DNA from: a virus
Taxonomy: Duplodnaviria; Heunggongvirae; Uroviricota; Caudoviricetes
Virus record (IMG/VR): IMGVR_UViG_3300042314_001251
Span: 31,580 to 95,579 of that record
DNA length: 64,000 bases
Reading direction: 5' to 3' (one strand)
The notes beneath the pieces are model-generated. The model was not told where the DNA came from. It searched no databases and was given only the letters and a program-made list of their open reading frames with translations. The first letter of the stretch is position 1. Every line of letters begins with the position of its first letter. The position numbers and the translations under genes were made by a program. This document shows, piece after piece, positions 62,147-62,900 of the stretch.

Positions 62147-62363
62147 AATAAACGAGAAAGAGATACTCGTAGGGTTTTTAAGTATCCCTCAAAACTTAAC
62201 GGAGCTGGTACCACCACGTCAAGGGGTACTCGTTGGGAATCGGAAGGAAGACTCTCCTATCCCCCAAGTAAGAGTTGACTTTTAAGTGGTAAGACACGTT
62301 GGGTTTTGAAATAGAAAAACTGTGAATATCTACTCACCATTAATCTCAGGTGGGGAAACATAG

Positions 62364-62469
62364 TCAGGTGGCGGAATTGGTTAGACGCTAAATTAACGAG
62401 TGGATAGTGTGCCATTGGGGAAGGGCCAAGAAAGTTACACATACAGGTTCAAGTCCTGTCCTGACTACA
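62364..62469 (+). ncRNA. non-canonical tRNA-like RNA (106 nt): tRNA-Leu-like acceptor/D-arm and canonical T-arm, but no anticodon arm; carries an extra internal hairpin
   Basis: 5' AGTCAGG-TG-GCGGAATTGGTTAGACGC (nearly identical to the tRNA-Leu(TAG) D region) ... 3' ACAGG-TTCAAGT-CCTGT-CCTGACT-A; the 54 nt between the D-arm and T-arm contain no 5+7+5 anticodon stem-loop. Confidence 0.45.
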
Positions 62470-62484
62470 AAAAAATAAAAAATT

Positions 62485-62733
62485 ATGGAAAATAAAGAAA
62501 CATACCAAATGGTGAATTATGATGGTGATAGTTACGACAGTAAGATCCCTGTGGAATTAGTTGAGTCGTTCCTTAAAATGAAAGAACTAATGGAACAGGT
62601 GTCTAATGGGAAATATTATTGTACACCAAGTATGTATTATACAGATGAATTGGAAGGTGTTTCAGTAGGTATAGTTGAGGTTAATGGTGACGGGACACAT
62701 ATTAAAACACCATTTAGTTTAATTATCAAATAA
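62485..62733 (+). CDS. hypothetical small protein
   Basis: 82-aa ORF between the two tRNA-like elements. Confidence 0.45.
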   Translation: MENKETYQMVNYDGDSYDSKIPVELVESFLKMKELMEQVSNGKYYCTPSMYYTDELEGVSVGIVEVNGDGTHIKTPFSLIIK

Positions 62734-62743
62734 AAAATAGTCA

Positions 62744-62824
62744 GGTGGCGAAATGGTGACGCCTAAATGAGACCCGTGGGGCGAAAAGACTCTCGTAGGT
62801 TCAAATCCTGTCCTGACTAATTTA
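62744..62824 (+). ncRNA. non-canonical tRNA-like RNA (81 nt), paralog of 62364..62469 (identical acceptor stem AGTCAGG/CCTGACT)
   Basis: 5' AGTCAGG-TG-GCG-AAATGGTGA-CGC ... 3' GTAGG-TTCAAAT-CCTGT-CCTGACT-A; the middle TAAATGAGACCCGTGGGGCGAAAAGACTCTC has no T-run and no canonical anticodon stem. Confidence 0.45.
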
Positions 62825-62898
62825 GGTCCTTTAGCTCAGTCGGTTAGAGCAACAGACTCATAATCTGTGGGTCCACGGTTCGAGCCCGTGAAGGACCA
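62825..62898 (+). tRNA. tRNA-Met (anticodon CAT; third CAU tRNA in the window)
   Basis: Acceptor GGTCCTT/AAGGACC, D-arm GCTC-AGTCGGTTA-GAGC, anticodon arm ACAGA-CTCATAA-TCTGT, T-arm CACGG-TTCGAGC-CCGTG. Confidence 0.8.
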
Positions 62899-62900
62899 CA

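Follow-up and report, generated by a model that had tools for sequence, protein, structure and literature searches.

tRNA-Leu-like elements with variable internal modules: a family of candidate non-decoding phage RNAs

By architecture and location, the closest natural phage precedent for the RNAs considered here is rnaC of bacteriophage T4 (species 1), which, like rnaD (species 2), is a small RNA encoded inside the phage transfer RNA (tRNA) cluster, with the homing-endonuclease gene segB nearby. Its T-arm (CCGGGTTCGAATCCCGG) is canonical and is followed by an acceptor-like stem, and no anticodon arm is recognisable. We analysed a 64,000-nt stretch of the Caudoviricetes record IMGVR_UViG_3300042314_001251 (positions 31,580 to 95,579, hereafter the window), which samples a large AT-rich phage genome (GC content of 30.9%) and contains two elements, e1 and e2, that an original prediction had likened to T4 species 1 and 2. 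The comparison is apt as regards the ends and the missing anticodon arm, and e1 and e2 also lie inside a phage tRNA cluster, with an HNH open reading frame (ORF) in the place of segB. We refer to such genes, from which alone these RNAs are known here, as tRNA-Leu-like elements (TLEs), and to the module between their D-arm and T-arm as cargo. Each has a 7-bp acceptor stem, a class II Leu-type D-arm, a canonical T-arm and A73, while the anticodon and long variable arms are replaced by a module of 20–146 nt, usually with one to three hairpins. The cargo varies between copies, while any one type is conserved in different phages and shows covariation. T4 rnaC, in contrast, has no sequence relationship to the TLEs, lacks a clear Leu-type D-arm, and goes unreported by the Rfam tRNA model at E ≤ 10, whereas TLEs pass the gathering score. 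The T4 RNAs are also single-copy and form no series of variable cargos on a constant scaffold, whereas TLEs occur in 1–11 copies per locus with about 200 cargo types.

The tRNA-like TMERs of the gammaherpesvirus MHV68 and mascRNA are tRNA-like signals for RNase P or RNase Z processing, or carriers of attached RNAs, rather than decoders. Plant mitochondrial t-elements likewise use tRNA-like folds for processing and not for decoding (PMC1920247). All of these are eukaryotic or organellar, the attached RNA lies outside the tRNA-like fold rather than inside as in TLEs, and they form no hypervariable series on a single scaffold. YrlA and other Y RNAs are modular non-coding RNAs that mimic tRNA through a D- and T-arm-like module and combine a conserved terminal stem with a variable effector module. 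The termini of YrlA are part of the Ro-binding stem, which takes the place of the anticodon stem, whereas those of TLEs form the acceptor stem; moreover, the TLEs do not match the YrlA covariance model (21 bits against a gathering score of 69) and have no tight linkage to a Ro60 gene. Phages carry Y RNAs as well (PMC12135203, PMC4201824), and a Ro60-like protein is encoded in the window. The minimalist tRNA-Leu described by Larkin et al. (2002) and reviewed in PMC9976931 retains the same elements and varies the same two arms as the TLEs, but it is an in vitro construct with deletions, whereas TLEs are natural genes with structured inserts. An engineered 'tRNA scaffold', in which an RNA inserted at the anticodon region yields a chimera that bacteria process and stabilise as they do a tRNA (PMC3753655), shares the functional logic proposed below for TLEs. 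However, it was devised for laboratory use and retains the anticodon stem as the site of insertion, whereas TLEs are natural, have a Leu-type class II body, and sometimes carry D-loop inserts as well (loci L152/L170 and L014). None of these systems unites a single fixed scaffold with hundreds of internal cargos and with multi-copy arrays.

Both predicted elements exist, although their positions had been off by 2 nt (e1) and 5 nt (e2); the revised coordinates are given in Table 1. As had been proposed, they share the 5' end AGTCAGG-TG, a D-stem GCG...CGC with GG in the D-loop, and the 3' end CCTGACT followed by A, so that both have, as in canonical tRNAs, a 7-bp acceptor stem (AGUCAGG/CCUGACU) and A73. 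Their T-arms also read as described, being ACAGG-TTCAAGT-CCTGT in e1 and GTAGG-TTCAAAT-CCTGT in e2; the T-stem of e2 includes two G.U pairs, and its D-loop is shorter than that of e1. The D- and T-arms of both contain the universal tertiary nucleotides (U8, A14, G18G19, T54-Psi55-C56, A58). The D region of e1 is that of tRNA-Leu(TAG) at 54997 with one extra T, in agreement with the original prediction, and an 8-mer (CCATTGGG) is indeed common to e1 and tRNA-Leu(TAA), but the variable-arm resemblance drawn from it could be due to chance. The hairpin closed by GTGTG in the e1 cargo had been placed 2 nt out of register: covariation pairs GTGTG with TACAC, not with CACAT. This hairpin stops 2 nt 5' of the T-stem, the position of a variable arm, while RNAalifold left the 18 nt from the D-stem to the hairpin (62389-62406) without a helix in an alignment of 25 e1-type sequences. 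For the e2 cargo, a hairpin with the stem GAGA 62769-62772 / TCTC 62791-62794 is predicted by a scaffold-constrained fold of the single sequence.

With default settings, ARAGORN called neither e1 nor e2. The Rfam tRNA model (RF00005) scored them at 34.5 and 34.8 bits, respectively (gathering score 29; 43–78 bits for nearby real tRNAs), but it aligns no more than the acceptor, D and T arms, with a local gap (47 nt in e1, 24 nt in e2) standing in for the anticodon arm, and neither element contains a canonical anticodon arm (5-bp stem, 7-nt loop, U33, purine 37). A valid cloverleaf formed via an intron was sought with permissive ARAGORN modes, which gave poor folds only: one 'His(gtg)', whose stem is A/U-G.U and whose 'intron' measures 13 nt, and one 'Ser(aga)', which lacks U33 and has two mismatches in its stem. 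Since ARAGORN is silent, Rfam leaves a gap and the forced folds are non-canonical, the missing anticodon arm of both elements is confirmed; an intron-containing or low-scoring tRNA was rejected on the same grounds, namely that ARAGORN with introns or lowered thresholds found non-canonical folds only. Another weak tRNA-like element, at 54493..54562 (+) next to tRNA-Lys, scores 30.3 bits with the Rfam tRNA model and is not called by ARAGORN; at its anticodon position a 5-bp stem, CTATC/GATGG, closes by eye a 9-nt loop (TCTCATAAG).

Rfam searches of the e1/e2 region (E-value mode) and of 12 array loci (gathering mode) returned no RNA family other than tRNA, plus one phage transfer-messenger RNA (tmRNA) elsewhere. 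A tmRNA identity of e1 and e2 was rejected, as their pair 3:70 is U-A and not G3.U70 and their cargos of 32–54 nt hold no tag ORF; in the window, Rfam found no tmRNA match, and ARAGORN with lowered thresholds gave one spurious permuted call. YrlA was rejected because its best match, with 21.2 bits, runs across the e2 T-arm and part of tRNA-Met. A phage tmRNA (locus L042, 5724..6218 (+), RF00023, 68.5 bits) was found on a viral contig, together with several TLEs and a large tRNA cluster.

The suggestion that e1 and e2 belong to a new family located next to tRNAs is borne out by the presence of the same ends in at least 120 viral contigs, in hundreds of copies. A pattern built from the ends only (AGTCAGGTGGCG, 52–82 nt, TCCTGTCCTGACTA, with 26 specified bases from both ends) matches these contigs far beyond chance, and the matches listed for it include 143 distinct sequences of 78–134 nt, whose acceptor is the same and whose Leu-type D-arm (GGCGGAAT(T)GGTAGACGC) is mostly identical; they have the T-arm ACAGGTTCGAATCCTGT and wholly different centres. 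When a few mismatches were allowed, 262 copies were obtained among the matches listed, 252 of them distinct, with about 199 types of centre, 163 of which are singletons. The 1–11 copies of a locus always lie on one strand, at spacings from 29 nt to several kb, and are interspersed with true tRNAs and small ORFs, although 74 of 121 loci have no canonical tRNA. A search of 185,579 species genomes for the conserved 3' 24-mer gave just 27 contigs, all from metagenome-assembled genomes (MAGs), mostly of freshwater Bacteroidota (Chitinophagia, Sediminibacterium, Flavobacterium, Saprospiraceae; the Loclat, Kiruna, Mendota and ELA contigs among them come from lakes), and no isolate genome; the identity of TLEs as host tRNAs or attP-type sequences was rejected on this distribution. 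A BLAST search with the scaffold against 50,697 isolate phage records gave no true match. The GC content of carrier loci ranges from 27 to 53%, and clustering of 2,285 ORFs of 148 loci revealed no obligatory neighbour protein, the commonest family being present in 14 loci; the carriers are therefore diverse phages. A description of the family was not found in the literature, even with literal scaffold sequences as queries, but most subscription journals were outside the coverage, so its novelty is unproven.

Default ARAGORN reported 28 of the 143 distinct sequences as tRNAs, with anticodons spread across Thr, Tyr(ata), Arg, Pro, Gly, Glu and Leu, plus eight '???' calls in which the anticodon has 2 or 4 nt. 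With introns allowed, 97 were 'called', with anticodons of nearly every amino acid and arbitrary inserts of 2–45 nt. Such scatter is the pattern expected of chance hairpins. Since the anticodon part is replaced by inserts, TLEs should not be able to read codons.

To avoid the bias of seeding with the scaffold, the e1 cargo alone was used as a query. It is present in 41 viral contigs, from which 25 distinct full-length copies were aligned. RNAalifold, unprompted, recovered the acceptor, D-stem, T-stem and cargo hairpin. In this alignment 99.2% of the cells are paired, and ten pairs are compensatory (four in the acceptor, four in the T-stem and two in the cargo); none of 500 shuffles reached the observed pair values, and slid-register controls gave at most three compensatory pairs. 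Two of the five pairs of the cargo stem, in which all cells are paired, have changed by compensation (C-G to U-A or the reverse in five sequences, G-C to A-U or the reverse in one). One copy has a wholly different acceptor, AGUGGUA/UGCCGCU, which is fully paired. Elements of the e1 type are 83–98% identical to e1; in loci L029, L038 and L067 similarity ends at the boundaries of the element, and in L047 and L064 parts of the neighbourhood match at only 70–79%; the e1-type element thus behaves as a discrete conserved module. The centres have thus not simply diverged, as the original prediction had it: that of e2 is unique among the collections searched, but that of e1 is conserved and covaries across 41 contigs and is therefore probably a functional cargo rather than a relaxed spacer. 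A tRNA pseudogene was rejected in view of the compensatory changes, the nearly complete pairing, and the conservation of the elements beside unalignable flanks.

Other cargo types also show compensatory pairs in their own helices, for example in an 8-bp helix starting from the anticodon-arm position. Among 142 type representatives, 56 have one helix, 70 two, 14 three and two four. About half begin no more than 2 nt from the D-stem, and 60% end no more than 3 nt before the T-stem, so that many TLEs keep the junction topology of a class II tRNA. Some elements have, besides the central cargo, an extra hairpin inserted in the D-loop between GGAAT and GGTAGAC (L152 4990..5129, L170 333..472 and L014 4982..5151), and the scaffold therefore tolerates a second insertion site. 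GUAA is enriched in cargos (61 observed, 38 expected), as expected for helices capped by tetraloops, while no enrichment was found for CGAA. An antisense search of the cargos against all loci matched only unrecognised TLE copies.

The 5' acceptor strand of e1-type elements has a pairwise identity of 95% (two variants in 25 sequences), compared with 41–68% for the real tRNAs of the same loci, whose acceptor strands are almost all different. Selection on the ends, as originally proposed, is supported by their near-invariance over hundreds of copies and by departures that keep base pairing. In loci L223–L230 (e.g., L224 13009..14370) the acceptor of every paralogous TLE is AGUCCUG/CAGGACU or differs from it by one G.U or compensatory step, as AGUCUUG/CAAGACU does. 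Two acceptor pairs have been switched by compensation, while the cargos of these paralogues differ. Judging from these sequences, this is concerted evolution of the scaffold, for which gene conversion, or an exchange of cargos through the conserved D and T segments, is the best explanation, with a shared trans factor as the alternative. The near-invariant sequence, the lineage-wide acceptor switch and the presence of the same cargo in unrelated flanks point to scaffold segments acting as homology arms.

The flanks of TLEs resemble those of genuine tRNAs. T stands at position −1 in 80% and C at position +74 in 98% of TLEs, usually with a CAA trailer; in 346 real tRNAs of the same loci, which have the CAA trailer too, the values are 68 and 97%. 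Bacterial RNase P prefers U at −1. Across the 252 distinct copies, U8 is found in 251, A14A15 in 220, GG in the D-loop in 227, A73 in 244 and U48 (U before the T-stem) in 209, and the T-loop reads TTCRANT. The leucyl-tRNA synthetase (LeuRS) of Escherichia coli requires A15-U48, G18G19, A20a and the pairs G18:U55, G19-C56 and U54:A58, and A73 is crucial to it, while the anticodon and the long variable arm are dispensable; a tRNA-Leu without both arms is still charged unless A73 or the D/T interaction is destroyed (PMC9976931). As a criterion of sequence and not of charging, e1 has this full identity set; e2 has A73, A14/A15 and GG, but C before the T-stem and the shorter D-loop. The scaffold varies just in the two arms that are dispensable for LeuRS. 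Leucylation of TLEs is therefore plausible, and the mature RNAs may be leucylated, by identity rules that come from E. coli and not from Bacteroidota. From the tRNA-like flanks and the retained LeuRS identity set alone we infer that TLEs may be processed by RNase P and RNase Z, receive CCA, and act as decoys of the synthetase or EF-Tu.

On the observed anatomy, distribution, covariation and flank similarity, we lean, with no great assurance, towards regarding TLEs as non-decoding phage RNAs scaffolded on tRNA-Leu, which would be processed like tRNAs and function through their cargo. They would be transcribed together with the tRNAs and small ORFs around them; RNase P and the host pathway of 3' tRNA maturation would excise them, and they would fold into a tRNA-like L-shape and receive CCA, with leucylation of the mature RNAs being possible. 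The tRNA body would provide processing, stability and access to tRNA-binding host proteins, and the cargo a copy-specific activity, most likely the binding or titration of a host or phage factor during infection, while scaffold segments could double as homology arms for cassette-like cargo exchange or gene conversion. A bolder version, which we put forward only tentatively, is a natural modular 'tRNA-scaffold display', in which phages of freshwater Bacteroidota would share a tRNA-Leu chassis, possibly leucylated, and exchange hundreds of modules through the scaffold arms, each targeting a different host or rival factor. If so, the modules could target defence or RNA-metabolism proteins, and the arrays would be an RNA counterpart of accessory anti-defence gene repertoires.

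Several observations weigh against a function residing in the cargo of a processed RNA. Expression, processing, CCA addition and charging are deduced from the sequences, and a scaffold serving stability and processing alone leaves the conservation of the acceptor sequence, beyond its pairing, unexplained. The cargos have no universal motif (GAGUGG- and GAGGUA-like words are modestly enriched, in about 20% of types), none matches an Rfam family, and the complementarity of the e1 and e2 cargos to the 64-kb window is within the shuffled range. Cargos fold only modestly better than shuffles (mean z = −0.96), and e1 and e2 themselves have z > 0. Searches with three patterns found no relatives of the e2 cargo and D-arm variant in viral and metagenome collections, and since this cargo is a singleton its fold rests on a single-sequence prediction. 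Finally, the census was seeded with exact-match patterns, so that scaffold invariance is partly a selection effect, which the cargo-anchored e1 set mitigates, but for a single cargo type.

The scaffold itself could instead be the active part, either as a leucylated non-decoding acceptor donating leucine for non-ribosomal transfer, or as a decoy titrating LeuRS, EF-Tu or toxins directed against the acceptor end or against class II tRNAs; in that case the cargo would be secondary, for example diversified against nucleases or toxins recognising the variable or anticodon region. This would account for the retention of the LeuRS identity set and the confinement of variation to arms dispensable for charging, multi-copy arrays would raise the dosage, and a host defence that cuts the variable loop of a class II tRNA is known, namely Septu, which acts on tRNA-Tyr (PMC13096335). 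However, cargo types conserved with covariation across phages are not predicted for an evasive or irrelevant centre, LeuRS does not need a fixed acceptor sequence, real phage tRNA-Leu acceptors vary freely, and the charging is presumed by E. coli rules, not those of Bacteroidota. We therefore consider an activity of the scaffold alone rather unlikely.

The layout of the e1/e2 locus bears on a further explanation. The leader motif, e1, ORF82, e2, tRNA-Met and the terminator (Table 1) likely form one transcription unit, as judged from their arrangement; a promoter scan, limited to the sigma-70 type, was uninformative, with seven sites against 7.0 expected. In other loci the leader motif (AAAAACCGnnAAnATCTACTCACnnnnAATCTCAGGnTGGGGAAACAT) stops some 7 nt short of the first tRNA or TLE in the cluster, preceding TLEs in L005, L009, L034, L055 and L150 and ordinary tRNAs in L006, L081 and L161. 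Its hairpin pairs CTCACC 62333-62338 with GGTGGG 62349-62354 around a loop that includes AATCTCA, and the stem, judged by eye, varies in a compensatory manner between loci; the motif may be a promoter, leader or processing element of tRNA/TLE clusters. ORF82 gave no Pfam or PHROG family above threshold and has no homologues in 209 other loci, nor were homologues of ORF133 or ORF91 found near other TLEs. Relatives of the HNH ORF lie near TLEs in 10 of 209 loci and are thus part of the context, not an obligatory partner. A megablast search with 61000-64000 gave as its sole match a tRNA-Glu in Flavobacterium phages.

Table 1. Coordinates of the features described in the window.
Feature	Coordinates	Strand	Evidence or remark
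Ro60-like ORF (TROVE + vWA)	35758..37200	+	annotated DUF2828 + DUF7788, phrog_850 'RNA-binding protein'
Candidate large structured RNA, ~540 nt, non-coding	37193..37735	+	directly 3' of the Ro60-like gene
HNH homing-endonuclease-like ORF, 201 aa	61541..62146	+	PHROG HNH, best E = 4.6e-20; Pfam HNH_3 weak
Leader motif, ~50 nt, with hairpin	62312..62361	+	directly abuts the e1 5' end
e1, TLE, 106 nt	62362..62467	+	sequence; 25 cargo-anchored homologues
e1 parts	acceptor 62362-62368/62460-62466; D-arm 62371-62388; cargo 62389-62442; T-arm 62443-62459; A73 62467
e1 cargo hairpin	62407..62440	+	GTGTG 62407-62411 / TACAC 62436-62440; inner TTGG/CCAA hairpin
ORF82, 82 aa	62485..62733	+	17 nt after e1, 5 nt before e2
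e2, TLE, 81 nt	62739..62819	+	sequence; scaffold-constrained fold
e2 parts	acceptor 62739-62745/62812-62818; D-arm 62748-62762; cargo 62763-62794; T-arm 62795-62811; A73 62819
tRNA-Met(CAT), canonical	62825..62899	+	5 nt 3' of e2; ARAGORN; Rfam 71.5 bits
Intrinsic-terminator-like hairpin (11 bp) + T-run	62900..62935	+	terminator scan; closes the e1-ORF82-e2-tRNA-Met unit

Because e1 and e2 bracket ORF82 at short spacers and arrays are mixed with small ORFs, always co-oriented, TLEs could be cis-acting punctuation, whose tRNA-like fold would mainly direct RNase P and 3'-end processing to cut polycistronic transcripts into small-ORF mRNAs, the excised RNA having no function in trans; at the DNA level, their conserved ends would be portable homology for shuffling cassettes of small genes. 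The occurrence of e1-type elements in unrelated flanks and the concerted acceptor variants of paralogues fit this proposal, and t-elements are an established precedent (PMC1920247). Nevertheless, many TLEs are separated from the next by just 29–130 nt that contain no ORF, neither a conserved cargo nor the Leu-specific A15-U48 and A73 is required of an RNase P signal, and ordinary tRNAs in the same clusters could already offer punctuation, so we hold a purely cis-acting role to be of low probability.

The product of ORF 35758..37200 is Ro60-like according to its predicted structure: in the AlphaFold2 model (pLDDT 76, pTM 0.70), the top four Foldseek matches in the PDB are Ro60 proteins (E = 5.5e-8 to 2.7e-6), headed by that of Thermus phage phiLo (E = 5.5e-8, TM 0.53) and including Xenopus Ro with and without RNA. 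A TLE–Ro60 partnership is therefore a possible, minor rival, in which the constant terminal stem of a Y-RNA-like TLE would bind this protein, or that of the host, and the variable module would tether an effector. The layout of constant stem and variable module parallels that of Y RNAs, bacterial Y RNAs mimic tRNAs (PMC4201824), and a phage Ro60 binds adjacent phage Y-like RNAs (PMC12135203). In 20 of 80 viral loci anchored on the Ro60-like protein, a tRNA cluster, often with TLEs, begins within 5 kb downstream of the gene and never upstream, and TLEs lie within 10 kb of the gene in 13 of the 80. However, the 154 tRNAs against 20 TLEs in these downstream regions indicate a link with tRNA clusters in general. 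Conversely, among 209 TLE-anchored loci the Ro60-like gene is found within about 5 kb of a TLE in just one, the distance from e1/e2 in the window is 25 kb, and the TLE and Ro60-like contig sets have no contig in common among the matches listed. The topology of YrlA is moreover permuted relative to TLEs, whose cargos lack the CGAA enrichment noted above. The Ro60-like protein also has a candidate partner of its own in the conserved stretch adjoining its gene (37193..37735), which shows 68–90% identity in the most closely related loci, has a terminator hairpin at its end and matches no Rfam family. RNAalifold predicts 69 pairs in it, 14 of them compensatory in nine sequences, with recurring AAACGA-type loops, and it is possibly the Y-RNA-like partner of the protein. 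We accordingly regard TLEs as improbable Ro60 partners.

That TLEs are decaying tRNA-Leu pseudogenes, or unusual decoders with introns or expanded loops missed by the tools, is very improbable despite the clearly tRNA-Leu-derived scaffold, the many intron-mode 'calls' and the apparently oversized anticodon loop at 54493..54562, since decay would have eroded the ends, which are both kept in hundreds of copies with compensatory pairing, the intron-mode anticodons and 'introns' are arbitrary, cargo length is widely spread, and bacteria, to our knowledge, have no splicing machinery for such short inserts.

The proteins of the window point to a Bacteroidota host. A 735-aa protein (45539..47746 (-)) carries a CHU_C type IX secretion signal domain, and weak matches of window proteins are to Tenacibaculum, Microcystis and uncultured phages. 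Two histidine-kinase-like proteins are also encoded, one with GAF, PAS and HATPase_c domains (48664..50589 (+)) and one with HATPase_c alone (51197..52600 (+)); together with the CHU_C protein, they are unusual phage cargo that again points to Bacteroidota. ARAGORN found 23 tRNAs window-wide in four clusters, at about 43.8–45.5, 54.0–55.1, 61.1–61.5 and 62.8 kb. tRNA-Ile(TAT) (45225..45297 (+)) belongs to this nearly complete set, from which tRNA-His is the single amino acid absent. The ARAGORN calls tRNA-Tyr(gta) (44106..44187 (+)) and tRNA-Lys(ttt) (54413..54485 (+)) are not among the Rfam matches at gathering score.

If TLEs are the non-decoding, cargo-bearing RNAs towards which we lean, they would form one of the largest phage non-coding RNA families with no assigned function, and one that current annotation would not flag as a distinct class. 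Finders of tRNAs skip or mislabel them, as ARAGORN does in reporting 28 of 143 as tRNAs with arbitrary anticodons and Rfam in labelling them 'tRNA', and tRNA counts of metagenomic phages are therefore probably contaminated by non-decoders. The conserved scaffold could serve as a naturally optimised chassis for RNA expression, and the family would directly link the identity rules of LeuRS to a natural anticodon-less RNA in a testable way. The tRNA body would have been repurposed by phages as a general carrier of diverse structured RNAs, and the question raised in the 1970s about the role of RNAs of the T4 species 1 and 2 type would be revived, with hundreds of natural variants to compare.

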